A DNA stretch of 64,000 nucleotides from assembly GCA_963805085.1 (NCBI GenBank), contig CAWDTA010000002.1:2048001-2112000 (forward strand), given 5' to 3'. Below the pieces are notes generated by a model that saw only the letters and a list, made by a program, of their open reading frames with translations, was not told where the DNA came from and searched no databases. The DNA is from an uncultured Veillonellaceae bacterium. Its GTDB lineage: Bacteria; Bacillota; Negativicutes; JARBTT01. Of the stretch, positions 1-26,832 are shown piece by piece (within the stretch, counting starts at the first letter, position 1; every line of letters starts with the position of its first letter). Made by a program: the position numbers and the translations under genes.

Positions 1-1159
1 CACGTTTATTTTTTGTACACTCATCTTTATGTGAGCAAGTCTTGCAGGCTTTACTTCGATAGAGTTTTTCTCTTGCATCATTTTTGCTTACATTGCATAG
101 AATTTGACCTTGAGGACAAACGTAATGATCATTCTCTGAATCGTACTTAAAGTTATCCAAAATATAATTTGAATTTCCTGTAGTCGAAGGTGGCTTTTGT
201 TTAGATACAATTGTAATTATGTTTTCTTTTTCACATTTTTCGAGGCATTGTCCGGTATAGTAACCTTTATCAGCTAATACAGTTATTTCTTCTACATTAA
301 GTATTTGCTTTGCTTGTGTTGCCATTGCATAAAGTTGCCCTTGATCAGCCGGATTATTGATAACATCTGCAGCAATGATTATGTGATTTTTCGCATCAAC
401 AGCAGTTTGCATATTATATGCCACATCAAATCCCATATTATTAGCACCCATAAGTCTAGCATCTTTATCTGTCAAAGACATTTCTCCGTTTTGCCTAACC
501 TGTTGTTTGATTTCGACCAAATCATGAATACGCTGTGTCGCATTAGCTAATTTTTCTCGTATTTCTTCCTTGTTATAAGTAATGGTACTACTGCTATCGT
601 TTTAATCGTTATTTTCTAATAGCTCCAAATAGCGTTGAGCAGCTTGTTCAAAATATGCTAACATTTTTTCAATTTTACCTTTGGTCAAATTTTTCTTACG
701 AGCGTTATTAGCTCGAAATTTACTGCCGTCTATAGCGACGATTTCTTTACCCAATAGACCAAGATCATTACATAAGAAAGAAAAATGCTTAAAGATATTT
801 TTTAGTAAAGATATATTATCCTTCCTAAAGTCAGCAATAGTACGATAATCCGGCTTTAGCTCTTGAATCAACCACATCAATTCTATATTTCTTTTACACT
901 CATTTTCTAGTTTACGCGAAGTTCTTATGCCATTGAAATATCCATAAAGATACAACTTAAGCATATCAGCAGGATTATATGGTTTACGTCCTGTAGCTTT
1001 TGTGATTGCATATTTAAATCCAAATTCGTTTAAATTCAAAGTGTCGACAAAGGCATCTAATACACGTACTGGATTGTCTTCGCTTATCATTTCATCAGAT
1101 GACATAGGTATAAGATTGATTTGATTTCTGTTAGTGTTATTAGAAATATACCGTCCCAT
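1..1159 (-). pseudogene. IS1182-family DDE transposase with one in-frame stop; runs off the window start
   Basis: N-terminal GRKPYNP..LKLYLYGY..SRKLE..PDYRTIADFRK and AIDGSKF motifs. After the TAA at 602-604 the same frame continues (TDKDARLM..YNMQTAVD..LADKGY..YVCPQG) to the window edge. Confidence 0.9.
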
Positions 1160-1242
1160 AATTCACCTCAAAGCATGAAATATTATAATCTTATTATAAC
1201 ATTTCAGCTATTAATATCGCTCTATCGTTTTCGCACAGTCTG
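1..1242 (-). mobile_element. IS1182-family element; left end near 1242
   Basis: Terminal GTTTTCGCACAGTCT at about 1227-1241, upstream of the transposase. Confidence 0.7.
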
Positions 1243-1295
1243 ACGTCCCTGACTGTCCACTGACTGTCCAAAAAGGAACGTCCCTTAGTGTCTTC
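1243..1295. repeat. Short REP-like repeats (ACGTCCCTGACTGTCCAC-TGACTGTCCA..GGAACGTCCCTTAGTGTCTTCC)
   Basis: ACGTCCCT and TGACTGTCCA are each duplicated between the IS end and a truncated GNAT gene. Confidence 0.55.
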
Positions 1296-1298
1296 CTA

Positions 1299-1536
1299 GT
1301 GGATGATAAACTTGAAATGCTGTTTATTAATCCTGTATCGCGTGGCAATGGTATAGGCAAAGAGTCGCTTATTTATGTGATAGAGCAGCAAAAAGTGAAA
1401 CGAGTAGATGTTAATGAGCAGAATGTTCAGGCGGCTGAATTTTATAAGAACATGGGGTTTGGTGTCCGTAAATCGTTCTGAATTTGATGGTGCCGGGAAG
1501 CATTATCCTATCTTGCACATGGAGTTGAAATGCTAA
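1299..1536 (+). pseudogene. YjaB-like GNAT acetyltransferase remnant (5'-truncated, frameshifted)
   Basis: LEMLF..RGNGIGK..VDVNEQN..FYKNMGF. The C-terminus RSEFDGAGKHYPILHMEL lies in another frame and ends at TAA 1536. Confidence 0.8.
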
Positions 1537-1559
1537 CGAGCTAAATTTTAAATGGTAAA

Positions 1560-1587
1560 TAGACAGAGAGAACCGTCAATTTGTATA
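1560..1587 (-). repeat. Border palindrome R, copy 1 (inverted)
   Basis: Reverse complement is TATACAAATTGACGGTTCTCTCTGTCTA. Confidence 0.75.
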
Positions 1588-2202
1588 TTTGGTTAAAGTC
1601 ACAAAAACCACTAGTTACCTGAGTTTGAAGGGGAGTTGGTGGTTTTTTTTGTGCTCTTGAGAAGGAAATTTTCACCTCTACCATGTAAAACACGGCTTAT
1701 GAAGGAGGTAAATAAAAACTCTTGATTATTCTTTAACGCTTCCTTTTAAAGCGTTAAAGAAAGTGGATTTTGTATGATTAATAATATATTTACAAAATAA
1801 AAAGTGAGAGTTGAGGTCTTTATTGACTTAGGTTCTTACTTTTTTATGTGACTATTTGATGAATACTCTAGGGCAAACTGAGCCAGCGTGGCTCAGTTCA
1901 AAAACGGAATAGTGGATCCGCCACACCGAGATATGCATTTGATGAAAAATCTAGAAATTGAGTGAAAGTCACGTAGACCTGGTCGTTATTTTAAGATTAG
2001 AATTATTGTCTCATAATTTTCTAATGAGTTGTGGTCTAATTGCTATTGGGATTATATAGGAATAATATTACAAAGTTACAAGTAGAGATTATAATTAAAA
2101 TATGAACTTAGATAATATATTGAATGAATTTTACATATAAAGTAAATATTGTACAATACTTACAATGCAAATAAACTGAAAAATATATAAAGAGGTGTTT
2201 AA

Positions 2203-3066
2203 ATGAGTAGTAAGTACAAAGCAAGTATAATAATTCCAACATACAATCGAAGGCATTTGCTGACCTTAACGTTAAAGTCACTCTGTCAACAAACCTTACC
2301 AAAAGAAGATTTCGAAGTAATCATAGTAGATGATGGTTCTACCGATGATACTAAAGAAGTAGTTGCTGATTTCTCAAATTCGTTAAATACAAAGTATATT
2401 TATCAAGAGAAAGATGGATTTAGAGTTGCTGCTGCGAGAAATAAAGGTATATTAAGTTCCGAGGGTAATATATGTATTTTTATAGATTGTGGAATTTTAT
2501 TAGGAACTACTGGTGTGGAAAAAAACGTTATATGTCACAGGTCAGACAATGAGAAAGCAGTTTTAGGATATATTTACGGTTTTGATGAATATAATGAAAA
2601 CGAAAAATATTTGTTAGATTTGAATATTGATCCCTTTAATGTTGATCAATATTTTGAAAGACTTCAAAACGATCGAATACTTGATTACAGAGACGACGTA
2701 TACCAAGAAATTGGAGATGATTTAACAACTTGGTCTGCCCCATGGTCTATATTTTTTACGGGATATGTTTCTGTCAAAAGAGATACTCTTATAAGGGTTG
2801 GTATGTTTGATGAGAGTTATACAACTTGGGGATGTGAAGACACTGATTTGGGTCTTTCCTTATATACAAATGGCGTTCAAATAGTTCTAGAACGTGATCT
2901 AAAATGTATTCATTATCCTCATGAAAAATCGAGATTCTCGGTTGGCGAAGATGCTATAAAAAAGAAAAAAGAATACTTGCATAAAAAATATAATTTAAAA
3001 TCTACCGAATTAGCTTTAACAACCCCAAGTCGTCAATTAAACCAGTTAATGTTTAAAAGTGTGTAG
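2203..3066 (+). CDS. GT2 glycosyltransferase
   Basis: SIIIPTYNR, IVDDGSTD, AAARNKG and GMFDESYTTWGCEDTDLG motifs; RBS GAGGTG. Confidence 0.9.
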   Translation: MSSKYKASIIIPTYNRRHLLTLTLKSLCQQTLPKEDFEVIIVDDGSTDDTKEVVADFSNSLNTKYIYQEKDGFRVAAARNKGILSSEGNICIFIDCGILLGTTGVEKNVICHRSDNEKAVLGYIYGFDEYNENEKYLLDLNIDPFNVDQYFERLQNDRILDYRDDVYQEIGDDLTTWSAPWSIFFTGYVSVKRDTLIRVGMFDESYTTWGCEDTDLGLSLYTNGVQIVLERDLKCIHYPHEKSRFSVGEDAIKKKKEYLHKKYNLKSTELALTTPSRQLNQLMFKSV

Positions 3067-3296
3067 ACTTATAGGATATATTAAGTTCTTAGGGGCTTCT
3101 AAAGCTTTCGAATCTAATGATACTTATGCTAGTAAATTATAATATATTTAGAGAAAAAAATTTAATGGAAACTACTAAGTAGAGTCTATGAATTTAAATG
3201 TCAAAAAAATTATAGCATTCTCAATTTACTGCGAATGCTTATAAGATTAAAAAATATGAGCTATATTTTTTTATTAGCTCTCTCTGGAGGATAAAA

Positions 3297-4154
3297 ATGT
3301 CGTTATTTACTATGAAACAACTCTTAGACGATGCGTATCAAAATCATTATGCTATTCCAGCATTCAATTTTGATAACTTTGAATTATTAGTGGGGGTTTT
3401 TCGCGGGGCGGAGGAAGCGCAGACACCTGTGATCATTCAAATTACGGAACCTGCAATAGAATGGTTAACTTTGAAAAATGTAGTATCTGTTGTAAAAAAT
3501 GAGGTAGAACGGTGCGGTTTACCTGTTGCGCTACATCTTGACCATGCAAGTAATTTCGATTTAATAAAATCATGTGTAAAAGCTGGATTTACCTCAGTAA
3601 TGATTGACTATTCTGATAAGGATATAAAGCAAAATATGGAGATGACTCGACAAGTAGTTGATTTTGCTAAGAAATTTAATGTATCAGTTGAGTCTGAGGT
3701 CGGTGTAGTATCAAATATTAATGAAACTAAAGAACTAAGTAATGACTTTACTAGTTTTGATCAAGCAATTGATTTTTGCCAATATACTCAAATTGACGTA
3801 TTAGGTATTTCAATAGGTAATACACACGGGATGAAAAATAGAACAGCTAGTCTAGATATAGAAAGACTAATACGTATAAATGATAAACTTCAAAAGCCTC
3901 TAGCACTTCATGGAAGTTCAGGTGTAAAGGAAGACGACCTTGTTAAGGCTACTAAATTTGGTGTTACAAAAGTAAATATAGAGACTGAATTAAGGGTAGC
4001 ATTTAAAAAAGCAATTGAAGAAATATTTAGAGATAAACCTAATGAAATAAAACCCAGAAATATTATGGCACAAGTACGCCAACGTATCAGTGAACACGTT
4101 ATCGAACATTATAAGCTGTTAAATTCATATGGCAAATGTGCAAATTTTAAGTAA
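3297..4154 (+). CDS. Class II fructose/tagatose-bisphosphate aldolase family protein
   Basis: YAIPAFN, ALHLDH, GFTSVMID, IGNTHG, LALHGSSG and KVNI motifs. Confidence 0.92.
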   Translation: MSLFTMKQLLDDAYQNHYAIPAFNFDNFELLVGVFRGAEEAQTPVIIQITEPAIEWLTLKNVVSVVKNEVERCGLPVALHLDHASNFDLIKSCVKAGFTSVMIDYSDKDIKQNMEMTRQVVDFAKKFNVSVESEVGVVSNINETKELSNDFTSFDQAIDFCQYTQIDVLGISIGNTHGMKNRTASLDIERLIRINDKLQKPLALHGSSGVKEDDLVKATKFGVTKVNIETELRVAFKKAIEEIFRDKPNEIKPRNIMAQVRQRISEHVIEHYKLLNSYGKCANFK

Positions 4155-4233
4155 TATGTTTTTGAAAGCAAGTAGTGAAAAGTACCATGGAGTTTTTCCA
4201 ACAACATAAAATTTGATTTTTATAATTTAAGGA

Positions 4234-4602
4234 GTGGATGAGATGGAAGCGATAACTAATGAAATCAATAATATTCAAGATTTATGCTTGGATATATATG
4301 GGCGATATGATATAGATAAATCTATGTTATGGATGGCGGAAGAATTTGGAGAGGTGATAGCTGCAATACGAAAGGGAAAAAGTAAAGATGATATATGCGG
4401 TGAAATAGGTGATCTAACGGCATGGATAATTTCAATATGTAATATTTTAGATATTAGCTTATCTACTGCTTTAAAAGGGACTTTTAAAAAAGAGGTAAAT
4501 AGGCAGTTGCGGACTTATGGAAAACTTAAATATGCACAAAATGAAGCAGCTAAAATTCTTCTGTTAGATATGTTTAATAATTATAAAGAAAAGAGTGTAT
4601 AA
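4234..4602 (+). CDS. MazG-like all-alpha NTP pyrophosphohydrolase
   Basis: WMAEEFGEV..AIRK..EIGDL (EExxE...ExxD) motif. Confidence 0.85.
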   Translation: MDEMEAITNEINNIQDLCLDIYGRYDIDKSMLWMAEEFGEVIAAIRKGKSKDDICGEIGDLTAWIISICNILDISLSTALKGTFKKEVNRQLRTYGKLKYAQNEAAKILLLDMFNNYKEKSV

Positions 4603-4605
4603 GCA

Positions 4606-5199
4606 TTGATTAATATAGGACTAGCTAAGGGTGTTGTTAAAAGCAAATCGCTTAAACTAATAGAAGAATTGGTAGGTGAAAAAACAGATAAAAATAAACT
4701 CAGCTTTTGTAATGAAGATTTTAGCACTTTTTTACTCAAGCACAGGGATATTCCCCAATTAATTGAAAAGGGGATCATTGATATAGGTATTACCTCAGAA
4801 GAGTGGATTGAGGAAAATGGAAGCTGCGTAGATATAATTGAAAAATTAGACTGGTGTGATACAAGAGTAAGTTTAATAAGTCCAGTGGAAAGTTCAGTTT
4901 TGGCAGGTGATCATCCTATTCATTGTGTTACCGAGTTTCCCAAAATTGCCGAGAAGTTCTTTAAAACGATAAATAGGAGTGATGTAAAAATTGAATTTAT
5001 ATCGGGCTCTTCGGAAGCGCTCGTCCCACGATTGTATGATTGTTGTATAGATTGTGTTGAAACAGGGAGTACACTAAAACTTCATAATCTTTATGAAGAG
5101 TACGTAATATTTAAATCCAAAATTGTATTAGTAACTAACATTAAAATTAAAAACAAAAATCAAGATATGATAGAAAGAATTAAGGATATAATCAAATAA
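4606..5199 (+). CDS. hisG: Short-form ATP phosphoribosyltransferase (HisG-like), outside a his operon
   Basis: LAKG, HRDIP, DIGIT, TEFP, GSSEA and IDCVETGSTL motifs; no C-terminal ACT domain. Confidence 0.8.
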   Translation: MINIGLAKGVVKSKSLKLIEELVGEKTDKNKLSFCNEDFSTFLLKHRDIPQLIEKGIIDIGITSEEWIEENGSCVDIIEKLDWCDTRVSLISPVESSVLAGDHPIHCVTEFPKIAEKFFKTINRSDVKIEFISGSSEALVPRLYDCCIDCVETGSTLKLHNLYEEYVIFKSKIVLVTNIKIKNKNQDMIERIKDIIK

Positions 5200-5208
5200 A
5201 GGATAAAG

Positions 5209-6543
5209 GTGTATGATGTGCAGTCATTAAGAGAGGTTGCTGCTGATGTAATAGAAAAGATTGTAATTAAAAGTTACCCCTTTTTATCTCTTGGTAAACC
5301 TATATCGTTAATAATGGATCAATTCGCTACCAAAGAATATGATCGTTTATTACAAGCAGCATTAAATATTGGTTATAGTATACAGGTTCTTTCGGTAGAA
5401 GGAGAAAGAGATGGAGTATTCTGTTCGGAAATGCAAACGTTTGAGGAAAGTTCAAAAAAACCAAACTTAATTATAGTTGTTGACCCCATAGATGGGACCC
5501 TTACCGGCTCTCGAGGTGGGGCTAGATGTTTATCTGTTATAGGTATATCTGAAAATAAAAAGGGAAAGTCGTTTAAAAAATTACCTGATTGTCTATCGTG
5601 TTTCTCTGTGGGAAGTCAAGAAAATAACAAATTTCTAGAACATCTCTGTGTGAATGGAAATAAGATAGGCTTGAATAATTTTGAAAAGGACTTTATGACA
5701 CTTAATATTTCTACGTTACATAGGGCGGAGACGAAAGAACTTTTTTCTAACTTATTAGGTTTAAGCGTAGAAGAATTCGAAAAGAAGTATAGATTTTCAA
5801 TTGGTGAAAGAACATTATATAGGCCTAATCTGGCATATAAAATGATTATCTTTGTGGGGGATACTTCTGTTTCTTTACCTTTAGAAACTAAAAATTTTAT
5901 AGGAAGAACAGGTATTGCAGAAGCAAGATTAGAGTCTAGTATGTGGAAATATTGGAGAGGTTTAATAGTATCGGGAAGTAAAATGAAACGGTATGAAGGC
6001 GGGCCAATTAAATATCTTATTGATAGAATGAATTGCGCCAACAATCAAAAAGATATAGATATAACGAGTTTGTTTGAAGAAAGTGAAATGAAAGCGATGC
6101 TGAACTATGGATGGAAATTAGGTGAGATTGCTTCCTTTTTAGAAAAGGATGAATTTACACCAGAATTTAAGTTGATATGCATTGCTTCCATTTCAGGAAC
6201 ACGTGATAGATATTTGAAATCAATGCAACTCGGGAATCTTAAGCCTTGCATGTTTATTCCGGAGAAAAACTCTATACTTTATGAGACTTGGATTGTCGAA
6301 GATGGTCTTCTGAAAAAGGAAAAAAAGGAATGCATAATTAATACCATCAATGATGATAAATGGTCAAAGTATATATTAGATTGGTATAAAAAGGGAAGTT
6401 GGTCAGAAGTGTTTGCTAGGGCTAGCAAACACATTGAAAATAGTTCTGATCAATATCAGGTATTAAATTTTTTGGCTAGGTTAGAAAGAGGAGAAAGCTT
6501 GACGAAAAAGGATGTTAAATATGCTTACAATGAGTTGCAGTGA
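5209..6543 (+). CDS. Divergent GlpX-like (FIG superfamily) sugar-bisphosphate phosphatase
   Basis: VEGERDG and VVDPIDGT resemble GlpX GEGERDE / AVDPxEGT; the rest is divergent. Confidence 0.6.
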   Translation: MYDVQSLREVAADVIEKIVIKSYPFLSLGKPISLIMDQFATKEYDRLLQAALNIGYSIQVLSVEGERDGVFCSEMQTFEESSKKPNLIIVVDPIDGTLTGSRGGARCLSVIGISENKKGKSFKKLPDCLSCFSVGSQENNKFLEHLCVNGNKIGLNNFEKDFMTLNISTLHRAETKELFSNLLGLSVEEFEKKYRFSIGERTLYRPNLAYKMIIFVGDTSVSLPLETKNFIGRTGIAEARLESSMWKYWRGLIVSGSKMKRYEGGPIKYLIDRMNCANNQKDIDITSLFEESEMKAMLNYGWKLGEIASFLEKDEFTPEFKLICIASISGTRDRYLKSMQLGNLKPCMFIPEKNSILYETWIVEDGLLKKEKKECIINTINDDKWSKYILDWYKKGSWSEVFARASKHIENSSDQYQVLNFLARLERGESLTKKDVKYAYNELQ

Positions 6544-7363
6544 ATTAAATGAACTGGAAAAGCTGGCTGTAGAACTACGTATTTTAATACTTAAAATGAT
6601 AGAAAAAAGTGGATCTGGTCATATAGGGGGTTCTTATTCCTGTCTTGAAATTTTAATAGCGCTATATAAAAAAATTATGAAACAGGATAGTAAAAATGCT
6701 AATTGGCAGAAGAGAGATCGATTTATTTTGAGTAAAGGCCACGCGGAAAGCGCTTTATATGCAGTCTTATACTCGGAAGGATACTTTCCGGCTAAATACA
6801 CTGAGACAATGAGAAAAATCGGATTTCCACTACAGGGTCATCCAAGTGCAAAATGGCTTAATGGCGTTGACTATTCAACGGGCTCACTTGGTCAGGGGTT
6901 GTCTTTTGGTGTAGGACAGGCTATTTGTGGAAAGAAACAAGGATTCAATGTATTTGTGATAGTTGGAGATGGTGAATTGCAAGAAGGTCAGATATGGGAA
7001 GCAGCTTTAACTGCGCCTAAATTCGAATTGAACAACTTGACTGTTTTTGTTGATTGTAATAAATTTCAACTAGAAAGTCCAACGCAAGTTACGGGTAATA
7101 TCGAAACGCTAGATCGAATGTGGAGTAGTCTGGGATGGGATGTTGTTCGAGTAAATGGTCATGATTTTATGGATATTGTTAACACATGCAGTAAATACCA
7201 GGATAGGCCAAGGATAATTTTAGCTGCGACGATAAAAGGTAAGGGTGTTTCATTTATGGAGAACAACAATGAGTATCATGGTAAAGGCTTAAGTAATAAG
7301 GAAATACAATTAGCTTTTATCGAATTATCGAAACATTATAATGAATTGTTGCGGAAGGATTAG
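6512..7363 (+). CDS. Transketolase N-terminal subunit
   Basis: SGHIGGS, RDRFILSKGH, STGSLGQG, GDGELQEG and TIKGKGVSFME motifs. Confidence 0.93.
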   Translation: MLNMLTMSCSELNELEKLAVELRILILKMIEKSGSGHIGGSYSCLEILIALYKKIMKQDSKNANWQKRDRFILSKGHAESALYAVLYSEGYFPAKYTETMRKIGFPLQGHPSAKWLNGVDYSTGSLGQGLSFGVGQAICGKKQGFNVFVIVGDGELQEGQIWEAALTAPKFELNNLTVFVDCNKFQLESPTQVTGNIETLDRMWSSLGWDVVRVNGHDFMDIVNTCSKYQDRPRIILAATIKGKGVSFMENNNEYHGKGLSNKEIQLAFIELSKHYNELLRKD

Positions 7364-7364
7364 G

Positions 7365-8297
7365 GTGAAAAAATTGGAGGCACTTAGAGATGCAATAGGT
7401 ACACAATTGGTTAATCTGGGGAAAAAAATTAACAAATTAGTAGTTATTGATTGTGATATGGCTAAACATACAAGACTAAGTAATTTCTTTACAAATTTCC
7501 CTGAGCGAGGTTATCAGGTAGGGATTTGTGAACAAAATGCTATAAGCGTTGCAGCTGGAATCGCTAGTTGTGGTGATATACCGCTAGTTTCATCCTTTAG
7601 TGCTTTTATTGCAACACGATGTTGGGAGCAAATAAGACATAGTATAGCGTATAACAATACTAATGTAAAAATATTGGCAACTCATGGGGGATTATCCGCT
7701 GCAGAAGATGGAGGATCTCATCAATGCTTGGAAGACTTTGCTTTAATGAATGTATTACCTAACATGGTAGTGTTAGTTCCAGCAGATCCAGAAGAAGCAA
7801 GACAAGCAATAACTTTTGCGTTAGAGTATACTGGTCCTGTTTATATAAGAATAGGAAGAGATGCTGTAGATACTATTATGCCTAATCATTACAAATTTGA
7901 ACTGGGCAAGGCAATATGTTTAAGTGATGGGGAAGAAGTTGCAATCATTTCGACAGGAGAAATTACTCAAGAAGTTATAAAAGCAAAAGAATTATTAAAA
8001 GAACATAACTTAAATATAAAGGTAATACACGTTCCGTGTTTAAAACCAATCGATTTTTCAACCCTCACATCGTTGGTTGGAGATAGTAAATATATAGTTA
8101 CAGTAGAAGAACACTCTATATATGGTGGGCTAGGAGCCATTATTGCTACTAACTTTTTAGGGGAAATAACCCCTCTAAAGTTTAAAAGCATTGGCATGGA
8201 AACATTCGGAGAAAGCGGGAAAAGTGGAGAGTTAAAGGGAAAATATGGTTTAGATTGTATCGGAATTGCAAAAACTATATTGGAGTTATTGGTTTAA
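7365..8297 (+). CDS. Transketolase C-terminal subunit
   Basis: GICEQN, DGGSHQ, GPVYIR and VEEHSIYGGLG motifs; GTG start right after the N-subunit stop. Confidence 0.92.
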   Translation: MKKLEALRDAIGTQLVNLGKKINKLVVIDCDMAKHTRLSNFFTNFPERGYQVGICEQNAISVAAGIASCGDIPLVSSFSAFIATRCWEQIRHSIAYNNTNVKILATHGGLSAAEDGGSHQCLEDFALMNVLPNMVVLVPADPEEARQAITFALEYTGPVYIRIGRDAVDTIMPNHYKFELGKAICLSDGEEVAIISTGEITQEVIKAKELLKEHNLNIKVIHVPCLKPIDFSTLTSLVGDSKYIVTVEEHSIYGGLGAIIATNFLGEITPLKFKSIGMETFGESGKSGELKGKYGLDCIGIAKTILELLV

Positions 8298-8375
8298 CTT
8301 GTGGAAAAGCCTCTAACAGTATACTTGCGTTATCTTAGTCAGGGGTATGTTCATAAAAAAGACGGAGGAAATATA

Positions 8376-8978
8376 ATGTTTAACATTAGTAATATCGTAA
8401 CATACGATAATCTTAATCCTATTGAAAAAATTGAAGCGATTTACGAAGATAATACGTTTAAATATACATATAAATTGGAATTTAACAATCAACAGGAAGA
8501 ATTAGATTTAAGAGAAGTAATTCTTCTTAGTTTATATTCAATAGATACAATGCTAAAAAATGAAGGAGGAGCCCAATATAATTATTATATTAAAGATGAC
8601 AACTCTATAAAATACTTAATTGAGAATGCTTTTAATATAGTTATTGATAAAACTTTATTTTTACAAAGCCTTTTTGTATTAGACGAAGCAAAGTTAATAT
8701 ACAGATTTACTTGTGCAAAAAAATTCCAAGAGAACAATCTTACCTTAAAGCAATTAAGAATTAATAGTTGGGGAAACGAATATATTAAAGTTCATGACTT
8801 GATAGGAAAAAGAAGAAGTATAATTGCAAATTTATGCTTAACAGCTAAAAGACATTATAATGAAAAGGAAATGTTATATGACAGACTTATGCAATTGTTA
8901 CTTTCAGATATTAACGAACATGTCAGTAAAGAAATTAGAAATATAAATGAAAATTTAAATATAAAGCTATTATCTTAA
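8376..8978 (+). CDS. Hypothetical protein within the cluster
   Basis: About 200-aa ORF with RBS GGAGG before ATG 8376; no motif recognised. Confidence 0.7.
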   Translation: MFNISNIVTYDNLNPIEKIEAIYEDNTFKYTYKLEFNNQQEELDLREVILLSLYSIDTMLKNEGGAQYNYYIKDDNSIKYLIENAFNIVIDKTLFLQSLFVLDEAKLIYRFTCAKKFQENNLTLKQLRINSWGNEYIKVHDLIGKRRSIIANLCLTAKRHYNEKEMLYDRLMQLLLSDINEHVSKEIRNINENLNIKLLS

Positions 8979-9141
8979 AGTATTTGTTCTACTGAAGGGA
9001 TTGCTTCTTCAAAAAAATAACATTTATGACAAAAATAAATAGGATTTTTAATAAAGATGTAGAAATGTAATAAAATCATACTAAATACTGTTGGTATAAT
9101 AACTGGAACTAAAAAGTTAAATGATAAAAGGAGTTTTAAAC

Positions 9142-10173
9142 ATGAGTGAAAATTTGAAATATGACGTAAACATTGACTTAGCAAATAAAACGAAACAAGA
9201 GTTAGCAGAACATCTAGAAACTGCTGATAGAAGAGTGCTTAATAAAATTGGCGCATTTTCAGCTTTATATGAAATTAACTTTCCCGAATATAATGAACCC
9301 GTTCTTGTAATGAAGACAGAGGAACCTGGTTCTAAACAATTGATAGCTATGCAATATGATAGGATCGAAAGCGTATGTTATGACATGATAAATCATCTTA
9401 TTAATGATTGCATTGTAATGGGTGCAAAGCCGTTAACTGTTCAAGATGCTATTATTTGTGGGAAGATGGATAGTGATATTATAAAAAGATGTGTAAAAGC
9501 TATGGCAGAAGCTTGTAAACAACAAGATTGCGTTTTAACAGGCGGAGAAACCTCAGAGCAACCGAGAGTAATTGAAAATGGAACTTATATTTTAACCTCG
9601 AGCATAGTTGGTATTGTTGAAAAAAGTAAAATAATTGATGGTTCTAAGATAAAAGAAGGGGATGTTGTATTAGGGTTAGAGTCCAGTGGAATTCATACAA
9701 ATGGATACACGTTAGTTAGAGCAATAATTGATAACCATCCGAGTATAAAAGAGAAGCGCATAGGTGGAAGGAATCTTATAGATGCTATATTAGAGCCCCA
9801 TAGGTGTTACTATAAAACCATTAAAGATCTCTTTAAGGGAGATAGTATAACAGGACTTGCACATATAACTGGTGGTGGTATTAAAGAGAATCTCAATCGA
9901 ATATTGCCCGAAGGTTTAGATGCGGAAGTTGATCTTTTAAAGTATATTATTAGTGATTTATTTAAGGTTTTGAAAACTGTTGGAAATATAGAAGATGACG
10001 AAATGCTAAGAACATTCAATATGGGAATAGGGCTGGTTATTGTTACAGGTGAAAGAGATAGAGACGCGATTATTAAACATTGTACTGAGCAAGGAGTTCC
10101 TTGTTTTGAAATCGGAAAGATAATTAAGGGAAATAAAAAAGTTATCACTACAGGTCAGTTTAGTTGGGATTAA
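9142..10173 (+). CDS. purM: AIR synthetase (PurM)-like protein, divergent
   Basis: GAFSAL, GAKPL, GGETSEQP, SSGIHTNGY, AHITGGG and RTFNMGIG motifs. Confidence 0.88.
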   Translation: MSENLKYDVNIDLANKTKQELAEHLETADRRVLNKIGAFSALYEINFPEYNEPVLVMKTEEPGSKQLIAMQYDRIESVCYDMINHLINDCIVMGAKPLTVQDAIICGKMDSDIIKRCVKAMAEACKQQDCVLTGGETSEQPRVIENGTYILTSSIVGIVEKSKIIDGSKIKEGDVVLGLESSGIHTNGYTLVRAIIDNHPSIKEKRIGGRNLIDAILEPHRCYYKTIKDLFKGDSITGLAHITGGGIKENLNRILPEGLDAEVDLLKYIISDLFKVLKTVGNIEDDEMLRTFNMGIGLVIVTGERDRDAIIKHCTEQGVPCFEIGKIIKGNKKVITTGQFSWD

Positions 10174-10227
10174 AATTAAGTTTGCACATAAAAATATCTG
10201 ACTAAATATTTTTCAGGAGGTTTTTTT

Positions 10228-10935
10228 TTGAGATTATATATCATACGACATGCAGATCCTGATTATCCCAATAAAACGCTTACCCCTGATGGGCATCTAG
10301 AAGCGCAGGCATTAGCTAAACGTATGGCTAATCTGGGCTTAGACCGTATTTACTGTTCTCCGAAAGGTCGAGCGCTCCATACAATGCAATATATCGCTGA
10401 TGCCATAAATATGGAAGCTAACATTTTGAATTGGACAGCAGAATTAGATAGTCTTTGTTTTGAAGCTACTCCACCTTGGCATGTTGATACTGCTTGGGAT
10501 TTTCCTGGTGAAGTGTTTTTAAATCATAAAACGCTTCCTACCCATTCGGATTGGGATAAGCAAGCTGAATTAAAAGCTTTAAATACGAAAGAAGTATTTG
10601 AAGACCTAATAAAAAATTCTGATGAATTCTTAGAGACATTAGGGTTTGAAAGACAAGGAACAAGATATAGAGTGGTTCGCCCTAATTCTGAAAAAGTTGC
10701 TGTATTTACTCATGGAGGATTTATCCTCACTTGGTTGGCGCATCTTTTACAAATACCATTGACTATCACTTGGGCAGGTTTTTGGTTAGCACCATCATCG
10801 GTAACTACTATCCTATTTGATCAACGTTCTCCCGAATGGGCTACACCTCGTTGCATCGGTCTGGGTGATACATCACACCTTTATGAGGCGAAACTGGATA
10901 TTAAGCCGAGAGGAATCAAAGCAAATTTTGATTAA
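10228..10935 (+). CDS. Histidine phosphatase family protein
   Basis: IIRHA, SPKGRA and FTHGG motifs. Confidence 0.88.
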   Translation: MRLYIIRHADPDYPNKTLTPDGHLEAQALAKRMANLGLDRIYCSPKGRALHTMQYIADAINMEANILNWTAELDSLCFEATPPWHVDTAWDFPGEVFLNHKTLPTHSDWDKQAELKALNTKEVFEDLIKNSDEFLETLGFERQGTRYRVVRPNSEKVAVFTHGGFILTWLAHLLQIPLTITWAGFWLAPSSVTTILFDQRSPEWATPRCIGLGDTSHLYEAKLDIKPRGIKANFD

Positions 10936-11028
10936 TGTGAAGCGAATACTAGATTCTTTATTCGTAAGCGTCAGACAAGGCAGTGGATAAAAAAAGAGCA
11001 AAACCTGATGTATGCCAAAAGACTGCGA

Positions 11029-11154
11029 AAGACTGAGTGACGGTTCTTGTGTCTACATGGTCACCAATAAAGTGGTATTTAGCTAGAGATTGGGAAGAAT
11101 ACTCATAATAAAATTCTAGACTGAGGACGGTCTGCAGTGCAGTCTCTTTGCCTA
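11029..11154 (+). repeat. Border palindrome R, copy 2 (11029-11055), plus an interrupted variant (11117-11154)
   Basis: AAGACTGAGTGACGGTTCTTGTGTCTA and TAGACTGAGGACGG..TCTCTTTGCCTA. Confidence 0.75.
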
Positions 11155-11181
11155 GAATGGGCATTGAAAAGATGAATTATT

Positions 11182-11242
11182 AAACAAATAGAGCATGTAC
11201 AAAATTCAAGAATATCTTGAAATGTACATGCTCTATTTGTTT
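11182..11242. terminator. 60-bp hairpin A, copy 1 (probable bidirectional terminator overlapping the xre stop)
   Basis: AAACAAATAGAGCATGTACA..TTCAAG..CTTGAA..TGTACATGCTCTATTTGTTT. Further copies at 13438, 24351, 28478, 32973, 36679 and 40579. Confidence 0.85.
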
Positions 11243-11454
11243 ATTTCTGGTTTGTCCGTTCTACCGACGAGGTAATCAAGCGAAACATCAAAATGATTTG
11301 CTAAAGCAAGGAGAACCTCAAAACTTGGTTTAGATTCATTTTTTTCATACAAAAATATAATTCTACGTTTTACACCTATTATCTCAGCTAAATCTTCAGC
11401 TTTTAAGCTATATTCTTTTCTTAGGTAGTTTAATCTTTCACCGAAAGAAGACAT
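11233..11454 (-). CDS. Xre-family HTH repressor
   Basis: FGERL..LAEIIGV..YEKNESKPSFEVL..FDVSLDYLVGRTD. Confidence 0.9.
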   Translation of the reverse strand: MSSFGERLNYLRKEYSLKAEDLAEIIGVKRRIIFLYEKNESKPSFEVLLALANHFDVSLDYLVGRTDKPEINK

Positions 11455-11481
11455 AAAATCACATCATTTCAAATAAATATA

Positions 11482-11531
11482 TTGACAGTGCAATTTAAAT
11501 GCACTAAAATAAAAGTGTATTTAAATTGCAC
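11482..11531 (+). promoter_or_regulatory. SigA promoter with two palindromic operators, divergent from xre
   Basis: TTGACA-17-TAAAAT; operators GTGCAATTTAAATGCAC and GTGTATTTAAATTGCAC. Confidence 0.75.
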
Positions 11532-11615
11532 ATTTTAAACCGTGCGGAAAATTTCAGATAAGACAATGTAAGTATATCATTTTTAGTAAACCATTACATT
11601 TGTGATGGAATAAGA

Positions 11616-11846
11616 TTATTTTCTATTTGGATTATCTGATCTGCCCACAAGATAATCAAGCGAAACATCAAAGTAGTCTGCAAGAGCAATAAGAGTGCTA
11701 AAGGATGGCAAATTCATACCCTTTTCAAATTGTGTGATACTACCTTTGCTTTTTAGCCCTAGAGCATCGGCTAGTTTCTGAGTTGAAATTTCTTTTGTTT
11801 CACGAAGCAATTTTAATCTAGTAGAAAAAATATTTTTATCATCCAT
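11616..11846 (-). CDS. Xre-family HTH repressor
   Basis: FSTRLKLLR..QKLADALG..PSFSTLIALADYFDVSLDYLVGRSD. Confidence 0.9.
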   Translation of the reverse strand: MDDKNIFSTRLKLLRETKEISTQKLADALGLKSKGSITQFEKGMNLPSFSTLIALADYFDVSLDYLVGRSDNPNRK

Positions 11847-11857
11847 AACAAAACCTC

Positions 11858-11913
11858 TTGACGGTTAGTGTAACTAACCATTATAATATAAATATAGGTT
11901 AGTAATACTAACC
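11858..11913 (+). promoter_or_regulatory. SigA promoter with two palindromic operators, divergent from xre
   Basis: TTGACG..TATAAT; operators GGTTAGTGTAACTAACC and GGTTAGTAATACTAACC. Confidence 0.75.
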
Positions 11914-12149
11914 GAAAGATGAGCGAATTAGTTATTCTTAAAATAGTTAAAACAAAAAAATAAAACGGAACTGACCAATCTATTATTAGTCAGCAATGTA
12001 GTAGTCTATTAAACTTAATTATACCCGATATTGGATATAGTTCCTAGTAAAATCAAGAAAATGACAGAAATTAAGCTTGTATTATCTGCATCTGTACATA
12101 AAGAACTCTAGTGATTGATAACAAAATAACAATTGGAGGGGGATTTACT

Positions 12150-12443
12150 ATGGTAAAGAGTGTGTTTGATTTGTTGGCTTCTACGATAAAGCATGAAAAA
12201 TTAATTGATTTACAGCTGGAGAAATATTCTAGTGAGTATTACTATGCGAATGAAAAAGTTCTTGCGTATCAGAAAAAAATCAAGAGTGCATTGCCAGTGG
12301 AGTTGCAGGACAATTTGATGGCGCTTGATGATGAATATATTGGTATGCTGAGTAGCGGGATGGACGTATATTATCGGCAAGGATTTTCCGATGCAGTTCA
12401 GCTGATTATGGAGTCTTTAACTTGGGCTCCAACGAGAAGTTGA
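12150..12443 (+). CDS. Conserved 97-aa module protein B, copy 1 (possibly DUF6809-like)
   Basis: RBS GGAGG; near-identical to 14436-14729 and 25000-25293; C-terminal YYRQGFSDAVQLIM. Confidence 0.85.
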   Translation: MVKSVFDLLASTIKHEKLIDLQLEKYSSEYYYANEKVLAYQKKIKSALPVELQDNLMALDDEYIGMLSSGMDVYYRQGFSDAVQLIMESLTWAPTRS

Positions 12444-12753
12444 ATGCCAAAAATATAAATGGTAGAGCAAATTCGTTCATACATGAACTGTTACAGCTTT
12501 GGGGTATGATTAACGAAAACTTTATAATAAGCAAAAAGTCCAGCTAAACATAGAAGTTAGCTGGATTTTTATTATAATATTTACTTTTTTTTGACACAAA
12601 ATCATTGTTTTCTGACACCATCTTTACGGTAAATCATGTTAATATCAAGGTGAAAATAATGATGAAGGCGATGACGATGATGGATTTTAAAGGCTCTTTA
12701 CAGGTGAGTCATTCGATAGTCTTATTATCAATTTTAAAAAGAAGGTGAATGTT

Positions 12754-12840
12754 ATGACAGAGGCCTTACCTCTCTTTACATTTTGTTTAGGATTTTGCAT
12801 TGGCTTATTGTTATGGCCAAAACTTATAGGATTTAAATAA
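12754..12840 (+). CDS. 28-aa hydrophobic small protein (MTEALPLFTFCLGFCIGLLLWPKLIGFK)
   Basis: RBS GAAGGTG; the frame is conserved in the second copy at 28181. Confidence 0.55.
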   Translation: MTEALPLFTFCLGFCIGLLLWPKLIGFK

Positions 12841-13089
12841 ATGACTTTATTTTTACACCAGAACCAAGCTTTACATAAACTTAATAAATAGAAAGTGAAA
12901 TTGTTAAATTAATAAGAAATAGGGGAAGGGATATTGGTTCATAATGAAATGTGTACAGTCAATTATTTTGATTCATTCTCCAAGCTTTTTGACTTTTAAA
13001 AATGAGTATGATAGATTTATTAAAATATAATGATTGGAGTTGAAAAAATGATTAAATTTTCTTGCTAATTTTACAAAGCATAATAAGAT

Positions 13090-15941: not shown

Positions 15942-16634
15942 ATGTTTAGTCCAATAAAGAATACAAAAGTCTATGAATTGGTATTTGAACAAATGAAACA
16001 TATGATTGTAAATGGAACCTTAAAACGGGGAGACAAGCTGCCTTCAGAAAGAGAACTGGTGGAGCAGCTTCAGGTCAGCAGAACATCTATACGCGAAGCA
16101 CTACGAGCGCTGCAAATCATTGGCTTAGTAGAGTGTAGACATGGGGAAGGAAATTATATTAGAGAGAAATTTGAAAATAGTTTGTTTGAGCCGCTATCCA
16201 TTATGTTTATGTTGCATGAGAGCACTCCGAAAGACATTATTGAAGTTAGAATGATTATGGAGTTAGAAGCAGTGGCCACGGCGGCAAATAAAATTACGGA
16301 TGAAGAGCTTGTAAATTTGGCGATATTAGTAAAGAACTTTAAGGATTCGCAAAGCGAAGACGAGAATGTCAAGATTGATAAGAAGTTTCACTACGAAATC
16401 GCGCGAGCTTCTGGAAATTTTCTTCTGTTTAATATATTAAATGTGATATCTGAATTAATAGATTCGTTTATTGATGATGCTAGAAGAAAAATCATCATCA
16501 ATGAAAAAAATATAGAGCTGTTGGCGAAACAGCATGAAGATATATATGAGGCATTGCAAAGGCGCAATCCTCAAGAGGCTATTGCGGCCATGAAAAGACA
16601 TTTGGATATTGCTAATGAATATATGCTTAAATAA
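15942..16634 (+). CDS. FadR/GntR-family regulator (LctA/LldR-like)
   Basis: GDKLPSERELVEQLQVSRTSIREAL plus an FCD domain. Confidence 0.92.
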   Translation: MFSPIKNTKVYELVFEQMKHMIVNGTLKRGDKLPSERELVEQLQVSRTSIREALRALQIIGLVECRHGEGNYIREKFENSLFEPLSIMFMLHESTPKDIIEVRMIMELEAVATAANKITDEELVNLAILVKNFKDSQSEDENVKIDKKFHYEIARASGNFLLFNILNVISELIDSFIDDARRKIIINEKNIELLAKQHEDIYEALQRRNPQEAIAAMKRHLDIANEYMLK

Positions 16635-16730
16635 AAAATTGGAAAATCAACTGCGTAATGGTAACGCAGTTGATTTTTTTTACTAGTAATAGTGGAAAAT
16701 TTTACAATAACATGGTAATATATGAATAAC

Positions 16731-16741
16731 TGGTCATACCA
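16731..16741. promoter_or_regulatory. FadR-type operator TGGTCATACCA
   Basis: TGGT-N3-ACCA palindrome upstream of etfB; a related site TGGTCTGACGTATGACCA lies at about 17694. Confidence 0.65.
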
Positions 16742-16784
16742 TAATACCAATATGGTTCCTGAAAAACAAATAGGGGGTAAACGT

Positions 16785-17573
16785 ATGGACATTTTAGTAT
16801 GTGTAAAGCAAGTACCAGAAACTTCAAAAGTTGAAGTCGATCCAGTAACAGGAGTATTAAAACGCGATGGTGTAGATTCCAAAATGAACCCGTACGATTT
16901 ATATGCGTTAGAAACAGCCTTGCGGATAAAGGAAGAGGTCGGCGGAACGGTAAAAGTGATAAGTATGGGGCCGCCGCAGGCCGCAGAAGTAATTAAAGAG
17001 GCGTATATGATGGGCGCAGATGCAGGTGTTCTACTGTCAGATCGCAAATTTGCCGGAGCGGATGTCTTAGCAACCGCGTATACCATATCACAAGGTGTTA
17101 GAAAAATGGGTAATGTAGATCTAATATTGTGCGGTAAGCAAACAACTGACGGCGATACTGCGCAAGTTGGACCAGAAATGGCGGAATATTTAGCAATGCC
17201 GCATATCGCAAATGTCATAAAAATTGAGAAGATAAAGGATGCTTCGCTGATAGTAGAAATGGATATGCCGCATACGGTTGAAGTAGCAGAAATACAATGT
17301 CCATGTTTATTAACGGTGGAAAAAGATATTTATCAGCCACGGCTGCCTTCTTATAAGAAAAAACTATCTACGAAAGATTGGGACGTCAGCATATTTAGTT
17401 TACATGATTTTGCCGATCAAAACGAAAAAAACTATGGATTAAATGGGTCGCCTACGCAGGTTGAAAGAATATTTCCGCCTGCCGTAAATACCGACAAAGA
17501 AATTTGGAGAGGAGCAGGCGTGGAATTAGCTGATAAGTTGACGAGTAAACTGAAAGAATTAAGATTTGTGTAA
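16785..17573 (+). CDS. etfB: Electron transfer flavoprotein beta subunit (LctB-like)
   Basis: ILVCVKQVP, FAGADVLAT, CGKQTTDGDTAQVGP and GLNGSPTQV motifs; RBS GGGGGT. Confidence 0.95.
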   Translation: MDILVCVKQVPETSKVEVDPVTGVLKRDGVDSKMNPYDLYALETALRIKEEVGGTVKVISMGPPQAAEVIKEAYMMGADAGVLLSDRKFAGADVLATAYTISQGVRKMGNVDLILCGKQTTDGDTAQVGPEMAEYLAMPHIANVIKIEKIKDASLIVEMDMPHTVEVAEIQCPCLLTVEKDIYQPRLPSYKKKLSTKDWDVSIFSLHDFADQNEKNYGLNGSPTQVERIFPPAVNTDKEIWRGAGVELADKLTSKLKELRFV

Positions 17574-17585
17574 TAGCAGCGTACT

Positions 17586-17664
17586 TGATTATATAGTGAT
17601 TATATAGTGATTATATAGTGATTATATAGTGATTATATAGTGATTATATAGTGATTATATAGTG
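17586..17664. repeat. Perfect tandem repeat (TGATTATATAG) x7
   Basis: Read directly in the etfB-etfA intergenic region. Confidence 0.95.
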
Positions 17665-17725
17665 CACATGTACTGGTCTGACGTATGACCACTGCTGATA
17701 AAATCGTTGCAAGGAGGAGAATACT

Positions 17726-18916: not shown

Positions 18917-18954
18917 CTTGTATTTCTTAGAAATAGATGGCTGGAGGTAATAAA

Positions 18955-20367: not shown

Positions 20368-20494
20368 GCTGCCAAGTATCTGGTTAGAAAGCCCTTTAGA
20401 GTGGCGCGCTGCGTTCTTCTTGCTTTAAACTATTCCGGACGCACCGTTTTCTATAGTATTTCAAACTATCTATGAATACGGGAGGAAGAATACC

Positions 20495-26563: not shown

Positions 26564-26832
26564 AATCGGCAAAGTAGGTTTTTAGTTGCTGCCGAAACTT
26601 CACTTTCTGGCAATATTCATGGAATGTCGGTAGCGGTGAGCTTAGGCAGTGGTCATGAACGATTGACGGTAATTGGAGGTACCGAAGCCAAGCTAGATCT
26701 AGGGGTGTCAAGATTGAAATTCGGGATTTGGCCCCTGGGAGAAGAGTCTACTTTCCGCGATATAAATACTGCTTAAGCTAGCCTATAATATGTAATTTAA
26801 TGCTATTTTGTTATTCAGAAAGGAGTAGCATC

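Follow-up and report, generated by a model that had tools for sequence, protein, structure and literature searches.

What would a bacterium make with an operon that sets relatives of HisG, MazG and PurM beside an aldolase, a bisphosphatase-like protein, a split transketolase and a glycosyltransferase? The question is raised by a gene cluster at positions 2203 to 10935 of a 64,000-nucleotide stretch of DNA from an uncultured Veillonellaceae bacterium (GenBank assembly GCA_963805085.1, contig CAWDTA010000002.1, positions 2,048,001 to 2,112,000 of the forward strand), a stretch that we refer to throughout as the window. A preliminary description had seen in this cluster a candidate pathway to a modified nucleoside. 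Our comparison of the cluster with related loci in three phyla identifies within it a conserved kernel of a HisG-like protein, a MazG-family protein and a conserved family that we call U225. We infer, at a rough probability of 0.55, that the operon makes a specialised metabolite of the nucleoside type derived from a purine nucleotide, together with what that product and the chemical steps leading to it would be.

The cluster holds ten open reading frames (ORFs), all on the + strand and at the coordinates given in the preliminary description. The families below were called by Pfam and NCBIfam scans of the ten proteins, except where another method is named.

2203-3066, + strand: GT2-family glycosyltransferase (287 aa; Pfam Glycos_transf_2, 84.9 bits)
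3297-4154, + strand: class II ketose-bisphosphate aldolase (285 aa; Pfam F_bP_aldolase, 279 bits)
4234-4602, + strand: MazG-family all-alpha nucleoside triphosphate (NTP) pyrophosphohydrolase (122 aa; Pfam MazG, 37.6 bits)
4606-5199, + strand: short-form HisG-like phosphoribosyltransferase (197 aa; TIGR00070, 94.4 bits)
5209-6543, + strand: GlpX-fold phosphatase, resembling class II fructose-bisphosphatase (FBPase) and sedoheptulose-bisphosphatase (SBPase) (444 aa; Foldseek and hhalign)
6512-7363, + strand: transketolase N-terminal, thiamine diphosphate-binding subunit, TktN (283 aa; Pfam Transketolase_N, 156 bits)
7341-8297, + strand: transketolase C-terminal subunit (pyrimidine-binding and C domains), TktC (318 aa; Transket_pyr, 115 bits, and Transketolase_C, 77 bits)
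8376-8978, + strand (ORF 8301-8978, 225 aa): U225, a conserved family with no assigned function (about 200 aa; 47 homologues)
9121-10173, + strand: paralogue of PurM, the aminoimidazole ribonucleotide (AIR) synthetase (350 aa; TIGR00878, 294.7 bits)
10228-10935, + strand: histidine-phosphatase-family protein (235 aa; Pfam His_Phos_1, 69 bits)

These matches uphold the earlier calls of a glycosyltransferase, an aldolase, MazG, HisG, transketolase and PurM, and the ten genes are co-oriented as had been reported. Their coupling is equally evident at several junctions: the MazG and HisG genes lie 3 nt apart, the HisG gene and the gene for the 444-aa protein 9 nt apart, the latter overlaps the TktN gene by 32 nt, and the two transketolase genes overlap by 23 nt. 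The primary-metabolism paralogues had further been described as stripped of their usual operons, and the Pfam and NCBIfam scans indeed recognised no hisZ, hisD, purF, purN or purL among the cluster genes.

Does this combination of genes recur elsewhere? Using the GlpX-like gene as a marker we found three other Bacillota loci, and translated searches of a plasmid collection added loci from other phyla.

L006, Bacillota metagenome-assembled genome (MAG): PurM-GT2-MazG-HisG-GlpXlike-TktN-TktC-Ald-U225, then an unknown 483-aa protein and an ABC-2 exporter (Ald, aldolase)
L007, Clostridia MAG, 5.9-kb contig: HisG-GlpXlike-TktN-TktC-Ald-PurM
L008, human-gut metagenome contig: PurM-U225-MazG-HisG-GlpXlike-TktN-TktC-Ald-MATE-GT8
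L031, Nocardia megaplasmid: folP-epimerase-U225like-MazG(fused)-HisG-GlpXlike-hypothetical-aldolase-peroxiredoxin-like-hypothetical
L032, Leptospira interrogans plasmid p3: MATE-MazG-FomB-like kinase-GT4-PurM-like-HisG-short-chain dehydrogenase/reductase (SDR)-GT8-U225-GMC oxidoreductase-acyl-CoA dehydrogenase-aminotransferase-...
L033, Streptomyces anulatus plasmid: PurM-like-MazG(fused)-HisG-like-U225-like-aldo/keto reductase (AKR)-APH-family kinase-HAD phosphatase-nucleotide pyrophosphatase

The set is therefore conserved outside the window, and the prospect, raised in the preliminary description, that these genes might occur together nowhere else is not what we find. In the three Bacillota loci, whose proteins are 31-82% identical to those of the window, the gene order is shuffled; conservation with rearranged order is what a dedicated pathway predicts. 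An all-against-all BLASTP comparison of the seven loci finds the HisG-like gene in all seven; MazG, U225 and a PurM-family gene in six each; the aldolase and the GlpX-like gene in five each; the split transketolase in four (Bacillota only); GT2 in two; and the histidine phosphatase in the window alone. The invariant kernel is the HisG-like gene, MazG and U225, nearly always with a PurM-family gene. On the Leptospira, Nocardia and Streptomyces plasmids this kernel reaches two phyla beyond the Bacillota, with different tailoring genes around it, and in the Leptospira and Streptomyces loci it stands without the sugar enzymes. Glycosyltransferases lie in or next to four of the seven loci (GT2 in the window and L006, GT8 in L008, GT4 and GT8 in Leptospira), and exporters occur in sister loci (a MatE-family protein of 108 bits in L008, an ABC-2 exporter in L006, a MATE protein in Leptospira), so that the glycosylation theme of the preliminary description, here in the company of efflux pumps, holds beyond the window. 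The surroundings of L008 include nitrogen-metabolism genes, with purF 2 kb upstream, and purN, purD and a nucleoside hydrolase gene lie near the Nocardia set.

The kernel also extends beyond these loci. Further plasmid matches came from a second Leptospira plasmid and three more S. anulatus plasmids. In the homologue lists of cluster-type HisG and of U225, the longest contigs of seven entries are equal in size, and in Paenibacillus antarcticus the accession numbers of the two proteins are four apart. Among the carriers, P. antarcticus, P. durus and P. chitinolyticus are in culture, and others are human-gut and rabbit-associated Clostridia. In the Leptospira plasmid, positions 6437-7360 of L032, directly after MazG, resemble the FomB family of phosphonate monophosphate kinases (83 bits, far below the cut-off). 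Kinases of the FomB type turn a monophosphate into a diphosphate, and this one could thus activate a sugar or nucleotide phosphate in that locus.

Is the HisG-like gene, then, simply a second hisG? Its TIGR00070 score lies above the equivalog cut-off of 75.75 bits, and the genome's housekeeping hisG reaches 215 bits; the two proteins are 30% identical. Housekeeping hisG and hisE lie within a complete his operon on contig C1 (C1:241-248 kb), not far from housekeeping purF, purM (458 bits), purN and purD (C1:225-231 kb), where purM sits between purF and purN. The preliminary description had asked whether such copies exist elsewhere in the genome; they do, and the cluster genes are not its only hisG and purM. 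A second hisG was found in none of 25 relatives, 21 of which carry exactly one. We built a tree from 20 cluster-type rows (the seven loci and every third row of the alignment, 13 of 42) and 22 housekeeping rows (the genome itself and 21 relatives, with no actinobacterial or spirochaete housekeeping HisG), in which cluster-type and Clostridia housekeeping HisGs fall on opposite sides of a 100/99 branch. To judge from this tree, the window copy is not a recent duplicate of its own housekeeping gene. The cluster-type clade numbers about 46 members at 39% identity or more. Its window representative retains the DIP...DIGIT region and a loop, DCVETGSTL, that aligns with the phosphoribosyl pyrophosphate (PRPP)-binding loop region of solved HisGs. 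Within the clade, C107 and C150 are invariant and C84 nearly so, in the motifs WCDTR, CVTEFP and YDCCIDCVETG; C150, the sole one of these positions compared, is not a cysteine in the two solved HisGs aligned. Such cysteines may mark a site for a metal or for redox chemistry, or else a changed acceptor pocket.

The coupled MazG-family protein, assigned to Pfam MazG (PF03819), has SSO3215 as its nearest solved structure (E 3e-06), with EEFGE and GEIGD inside the aligned region, and it keeps the acidic EExGE/ExxD helices aligned with the solved MazG-like protein. The HisE model PF01503, run over the genome at E<=0.01, matched places on contigs C1 and C5 only and not this gene. Across phyla the conservation is remarkable, the window protein being 52% identical to the copy on the Leptospira plasmid. 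In the Nocardia and Streptomyces loci the MazG domain forms the C-terminal part of proteins of 306-379 aa (L031 10152-11291; L033 13377-14297), the N-terminal 220-290 residues of which have no Pfam or NCBIfam match and constitute an orphan domain tied to the kernel.

U225, the third member of the kernel and a gene that the preliminary description left unnamed, has 47 homologues that conserve the motif LIYRFTCAKKF...KQLRINSWG, and it can be recognised on the plasmids of Leptospira, Nocardia and Streptomyces. Its ORF opens at a GTG at 8301, yet the likely start is the ATG at 8376, because GGAGG precedes that ATG and the homologues begin there. We found no match to Pfam or to sequences in the Protein Data Bank (PDB), even with a profile of 33 sequences: the PDB profile search returned nothing at E<=10, and Pfam over the 33 members gave scattered chance matches only. 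The best Protein Atlas score, 0.86 to an unnamed viral cluster, falls below the lead level of 0.9. A predicted complex with the HisG-like protein, in which U225 would substitute for HisZ beside a short-form HisG, scored 0.00 with no verdict, which weighs neither for nor against such a pairing. We also considered a carrier-type terminus suggested by the conserved C-terminal ...IKLLS and dropped it, since the final position varies among S, T, I and F across phyla.

The PurM paralogue passes the TIGR00878 equivalog cut-off of 236.35 bits well below the 458 bits of the housekeeping copy, to which it is 38% identical; its identity to the copies in L006, L007 and L008 is 49-82%. The PurM-like proteins of Leptospira and Streptomyces stay below that cut-off, at 94 and 158 bits.

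What is the 444-aa protein? The preliminary description had called it GlpX, a call that stands at the level of fold (by Foldseek and hhalign) and falls at the level of family: the protein has no Pfam or NCBIfam match, including to the GlpX model PF03320. An AlphaFold2 model built on 33 family members reached a pLDDT of 92.8 and a pTM of 0.91 (an earlier five-sequence model, with a pLDDT of 65.6, was poor and was not used). The top Foldseek matches of this model are all class II FBPases or SBPases (including 7txg, 3rpl, 3d1r and 5a5l), at E-values from 5e-12 to 1e-9, target TM-scores of 0.61-0.68 and 12-14% identity, and inositol monophosphatases and HisN-type phosphatases score far lower. Aligned by hhalign with seven canonical GlpX proteins, the family gives a probability of 97.9% (E 3.5e-13), and its EGE and DPxDGT (DPIDGT) metal-site motifs fall on those of GlpX; a profile search of PDB sequences likewise gave marginal matches to class II FBPases (E 0.3-0.4) over the EGE...DPxDGT stretch. 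The protein is some 60-100 residues longer than GlpX, with a C-terminal extension common only to the L006 copy. It is rare, with four homologues among 5.8 billion clustered proteins and, when every one of 1.84 billion proteins was scored with a profile, 42 family representatives at E<=0.001. As the model and the profile alignment have it, this would be a phosphatase of a new, rare family with the GlpX fold: it shares with class II FBPase/SBPase the fold, profile-level homology and the two retained motifs, and differs in its low identity and in being a separate family tied to HisG/MazG neighbourhoods. The genome, which is 83% complete, holds no canonical GlpX by PF03320. Metagenome matches L009-L029 were tried as relatives of the cluster and rejected; they are weak, and L009 is an ordinary GlpX (FBPase_glpX, 295 bits). 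Seven of these matches supplied the canonical GlpX profile used above.

The remaining sugar enzymes are less distinctive. The aldolase belongs to the TIGR00167 subfamily (251 bits; cut-off 215.6) and lies below every equivalog cut-off for fructose- or tagatose-bisphosphate aldolase; its identity to the genome's 10 other class II aldolase matches is 31-35%. TktN is 38-45% identical to five other N halves of split transketolases in the genome and 29% identical to two weaker matches. The aldolase and split-transketolase paralogues of the genome (10 class II aldolase matches and at least five transketolase pairs besides those of the cluster) form an unusually large set, which suggests many ketose or polyol utilisation loci. 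The GT2 enzyme, probably soluble, counts as an accessory of the cluster: L006 contains a copy of 76% identity within its own cluster, and the other five loci have GT8, GT4 or no glycosyltransferase. For the histidine-phosphatase-family protein the best NCBIfam match is alpha-ribazole phosphatase, at 43 bits against a cut-off of 163; its gene has a GC content of 39.4%, compared with 32.4% for the other nine, and no counterpart in the six other loci. The gene at 10228-10935 is probably not part of the conserved set; in the seven-locus comparison both this final phosphatase and GT2 lie outside the conserved core.

How might these enzymes work together? HisG forms N1-phosphoribosyl-ATP in an unfavourable, product-inhibited reaction, which HisE, an all-alpha NTP pyrophosphatase, pulls forward by releasing pyrophosphate (PPi). 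The cluster resembles these first two steps of histidine biosynthesis in that its HisG-like protein passes the equivalog cut-off and is coupled to an all-alpha pyrophosphatase of the HisE fold class; it differs from a histidine operon in having no hisZ, hisI, hisA or later genes beside the pair, in that its pyrophosphatase is a Pfam MazG protein and in that the his operon is elsewhere. The HisG-like enzyme would couple PRPP to N1 of ATP or of a related purine nucleotide, and the MazG-like enzyme, in the role of HisE, would remove PPi and so pull the reaction toward an intermediate of the N1-phosphoribosyl-AMP type. U225 and the PurM-family enzyme, possibly with the HisI and HisA of the host, might then turn this intermediate into a committed scaffold, although PurM in the Bacillota version may merely replenish the purine used as substrate. 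Aldolase, bisphosphatase and transketolase interconvert C3-C7 sugar phosphates and are the rearrangement enzymes of the Calvin and ribulose monophosphate (RuMP) cycles; here the aldolase, the GlpX-fold phosphatase and the split transketolase could form a comparable rearrangement unit that either feeds ribose-5-phosphate and PRPP or reworks a second ribosyl (ribulosyl) chain. Decoration would fall to the glycosyltransferase and release of the nucleoside possibly to a phosphatase; in the sister loci a MATE or ABC pump would export the product while kinases and reductases add tailoring steps. The preliminary description had also imagined an unusual sugar phosphate to which a base is attached; no pyrophosphokinase that could activate it was recognised among the ten genes. 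An exported, nucleoside-like compound is the most likely product, and the extra pur genes in L008 and in Nocardia fit a logic of precursor supply. The individual steps of this pathway are much less certain than the general reading.

How does the cluster compare with known systems? That hisG homologues are recruited into nucleoside-antibiotic clusters, as the preliminary description had stated for pentostatin, is in print: the available portions of two reports describe such homologues in the clusters for pentostatin (penA), adechlorin (adeC, adeL) and pyrazomycin (pyrS), and add that AdeC and AdeL fail to complement an Escherichia coli hisG mutant (PMC13055916), that PenA is a HisG homologue, PenB an SDR and PenC a homologue of phosphoribosylaminoimidazole-succinocarboxamide (SAICAR) synthetase, and that standard genome-mining rules mostly miss nucleoside-analogue clusters (PMC12648386). 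Like the pentostatin, coformycin and adechlorin clusters as presented in those portions, whose pathway departs from histidine biosynthesis at its first steps, the window sets a divergent, dedicated HisG homologue beside a homologue of an ATP-using enzyme of the purine pathway. A commitment step by U225 and PurM would parallel that of the SAICAR-synthetase homologue in the pentostatin and coformycin pathways. SDR-type reductases accompany the kernel in Leptospira and Nocardia, as in the pentostatin type, and SDR or AKR genes are present across the Leptospira, Nocardia and Streptomyces loci. The MazG, U225, GlpX-fold phosphatase, aldolase and transketolase of the window are, by contrast, not mentioned for pentostatin-type clusters in the available portions of the reports, and pentostatin-type hosts are Actinomycetota, whereas here anaerobic Bacillota, Paenibacillus and Leptospira join actinomycetes as hosts. 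The window cluster follows the same principle as the pentostatin family, but two of that family's three defining features are absent from it, and it therefore looks like a variant that recruits primary-metabolism paralogues. Bacillus methanolicus reportedly carries plasmid-borne fba, glpX and tkt genes that boost pentose-phosphate regeneration. The window shares with that module an aldolase, a GlpX-type bisphosphatase and a transketolase as extra copies on acquired DNA; it differs in having no rpe, pfk or formaldehyde-fixing genes, in being joined to a kernel of nucleotide chemistry and in its split transketolase. We found no description of this gene combination in full-text searches of the literature, and subscription papers and supplementary tables (e.g., Table S3 of PMC13055916) may list related clusters.

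Several observations weigh against a nucleoside-type product. No homologue of SAICAR synthetase (PenC/CofB/AdeA) occurs among the ten window proteins, where PurM takes the place of PurC; neither an SDR for the final reduction (PenB/CofA) nor an AKR is found in the window; and the Pfam and NCBIfam scans recognised no other enzyme of known nucleoside-antibiotic pathways there. The window operon contains no transporter and no regulator. Since its PurM passes the equivalog cut-off, it may perform only ordinary AIR synthesis; moreover, the Bacillota cluster PurM is nearer to housekeeping PurM (38% identity) than to the PurM-like proteins of Leptospira and Streptomyces (26-28%), so the kernel may have gained its PurM in more than one recruitment. 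The aldolase and the two transketolase genes could serve plain sugar metabolism, because the genome is rich in such paralogues. The HisG tree has long branches for several cluster rows and a bootstrap that is not fully settled, and with the sampling of that tree a single cross-phylum origin of the kernel HisG is not established. The gaps in L007 are uninformative, because its 5.9-kb contig is cut at both ends.

A more specific form of the nucleoside proposal can be put forward only tentatively, and we would set its chances well short of even. The kernel and the PurM-family gene might define an undescribed, cross-phylum family of biosynthetic gene clusters, found in Bacillota of gut and sediment, in Paenibacillus and on plasmids of Leptospira and actinomycetes, that divert N1-phosphoribosyl-ATP chemistry into a new class of exported, often glycosylated nucleoside analogues. 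In the Bacillota and Nocardia loci the aldolase and GlpX-fold phosphatase, joined in Bacillota by the split transketolase, would remodel or extend the second sugar chain of the pathway's own intermediate, a bis-phosphorylated, ribulosyl-bearing nucleotide, instead of only providing pentose phosphate, with U225 as a novel enzyme in the same chemistry.

What else could such an operon do? The alternative that survives best, and one that we nevertheless consider improbable, is a surface-glycan or sugar-nucleotide pathway in which an unusual sugar phosphate (e.g., a heptose from sedoheptulose-7-phosphate) is put on a surface polymer while HisG, MazG and PurM serve to activate or modify the nucleotide. 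It would account for the glycosyltransferases in or next to four of the seven loci, for the nearest NCBIfam similarity of GT2, to exopolysaccharide glycosyltransferases (far below the cut-off), and for the aminotransferase, SDRs and GMC oxidoreductase of Leptospira, which are typical of sugar tailoring. It leaves the invariance of HisG, MazG and U225 unexplained, and both actinobacterial loci are without a glycosyltransferase; among genes of a polysaccharide locus the window cluster showed GT2 alone, with no recognisable priming phosphoglycosyltransferase, polymerase, flippase, chain-length regulator, nucleotidyltransferase, sugar-nucleotide synthesis gene or heptose-activation gene, and the transporter of L008 is a true MatE protein, that of L006 an ABC-2 exporter.

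Quite improbable, in our estimation, is a precursor-supply or fitness island, whose ordinary isoenzymes would raise flux to ribose-5-phosphate and PRPP, purines and histidine. U225 and a MazG protein that does not match the HisE model are constant members of the combination, and the copies diverge strongly from the housekeeping genes (30% and 38% identity), even though PurM and HisG pass their equivalog cut-offs. The aldolase, bisphosphatase and transketolase are the Calvin/RuMP sugar-rearrangement set, no canonical GlpX was found in the 83% complete genome, and sister loci have additional purine genes in their neighbourhood (purF for L008, purN and purD for Nocardia), all of which would suit such a role; yet the operon contains no prs, rpi, rpe or further his or pur genes by Pfam and NCBIfam, efflux pumps, glycosyltransferases, reductases and kinases turn up in sister loci, and the extreme rarity of the set would be odd for a general contribution to fitness.

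Could the operon instead act inside the cell as a weapon against phages or competitors, either depleting nucleotides as HisG and MazG consume ATP and PRPP or making a modified-nucleotide antiviral? MazG-family proteins teamed with purine-pathway paralogues do take part in phage-host nucleotide conflict, as with PurZ and MazZ in the available part of one report (PMC8342488), and the loci lie on plasmids and next to insertion sequence (IS) and XRE genes, with a sporadic distribution. PADLOC-DB 2.0, however, gave no convincing match for any of the ten proteins (nine had none at all, and U225 matched PtuB at E 0.006, with no stretch passing alone), Pfam recognised no sensor, nuclease or effector domain, no relatives of the GlpX-like marker were found in viral contigs, and eight to ten enzymes of biosynthetic type with exporters in sister loci fit the production of a compound better, so that we regard a conflict system as very improbable. 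Least credible of all is a catabolic operon in which the split transketolase, aldolase and phosphatase degrade a rare sugar or nucleoside: the abundance of aldolases and split transketolases in the genome is typical of sugar-fermenting Clostridia, but the operon has no transporter, kinase, isomerase or sugar-responsive regulator, the kernel occurs without sugar enzymes in Leptospira and Streptomyces, and catabolism would offer no role for HisG, MazG, PurM and the glycosyltransferase.

Nucleoside analogues rank among the main sources of antibiotics, antivirals and enzyme inhibitors. If the operon does make a bioactive nucleoside, it would represent such chemistry in strict gut anaerobes, where it is rare, and would provide functions for two orphan families, U225 and the new GlpX-fold phosphatase; were it only a precursor-supply island, it would still be an unusual portable module of purine, histidine and pentose genes. 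The combination of cluster-type HisG, coupled MazG and U225 is a searchable signature that marks about 46-47 sequence clusters, and the cultured Paenibacillus carriers make the hypothesis testable.

How did the operon reach this genome? The GlpX-like marker was found in none of 60 genomes of relatives and U225 in none of 400 genomes drawn across the phylum. The preliminary description had called the cluster visibly AT-rich, which is correct if modest: its GC content is 32.9% against a genome mean of 37.4% (standard deviation 2.4% over 8.7-kb segments), and 2.5% of such segments are equally low. From 15711 onward the window is matched at 96% by a genome of the same genus (84% complete, 280 contigs), which also matches a short stretch at 11165-11312; 1160-11165 is unmatched there bar two short chance-level matches in a transketolase. 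Low GC content, an IS remnant and the lack of a match to the cluster in the same-genus genome together point to horizontal acquisition; the operon was probably acquired in this way, the fragmentary assembly of the relative precluding proof. A megablast search of plasmids with the 8.7-kb cluster DNA gave no match.

The IS remnant lies at the left edge of the window, where a DDE transposase at 2-1159 on the - strand is either split or frameshifted, appearing as two adjacent ORFs (DUF772, the N-terminal part, at 602-1159, and DDE_Tnp_1 at 2-520, running off the window). A 91% identical piece stands at a contig end in the same-genus genome, so the element is a multi-copy IS. By eye, 1280-1480 (+), a stretch that no complete ORF encloses, resembles the C terminus of a GNAT-type acetyltransferase, possibly the remnant of a gene cut by insertion of the IS or of the island. 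The preliminary description had the cluster bracketed by inverted palindromes, which we do not find: the two flanks are not joined by any long inverted repeat, and the best pairings between them have arms of 27-30 nt at 73-74% complementarity, the level of chance. What had been taken for palindromes are two separate hairpins.

1729-1761, + strand: terminator-like hairpin of 13 pairs, upstream of the AT-rich leader of the operon (the former left palindrome)
11181-11243, no strand assigned: perfect hairpin with 21-nt arms, 100% complementary, and a 21-nt loop, downstream of the operon (the former right palindrome)

The second is probably a bidirectional terminator common to the operon and a convergent XRE gene. 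We considered these flanking palindromes as ends of a mobile element and rejected the idea, as no long inverted or direct repeat brackets the cluster. Promoter-like sites number 53, compared with 51.5 in shuffled sequences, and because the counts are equal we claim no promoter. An Rfam search of window positions 1-13000 for a riboswitch or leader RNA at E<=1 returned chance miRNA-like matches on the hairpin only, and gathering-level Rfam scans of L006, L007 and L008 returned solely a Clostridiales-1 RNA outside the cluster (122.7 bits; L008 4925-5092, - strand), which lies upstream of the cluster between purF and a gene for an Amt-PII fusion.

Beyond the terminator are two small XRE/HTH_3 paralogues in tandem (11233-11454 and 11616-11846, - strand; 73 and 76 aa), with an 80-nt direct repeat of 74% identity over the 3' ends of both genes and an operator-like palindrome with 18-nt arms between them at 11488-11531. 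The genes at 15942-22018 (+) for a GntR/FCD regulator, electron transfer flavoprotein beta and alpha subunits, an FAD-linked oxidase of the lactate dehydrogenase type and a lactate permease form a lactate-utilisation operon that is 96% identical in the same-genus genome; such operons are typical of anaerobic butyrate and acetate formers. At 25595-26563 (+), a 322-aa protein has a zinc-dependent phospholipase C domain (49.8 bits) and is followed by a GDSL lipase/acylhydrolase at 26800-27513.

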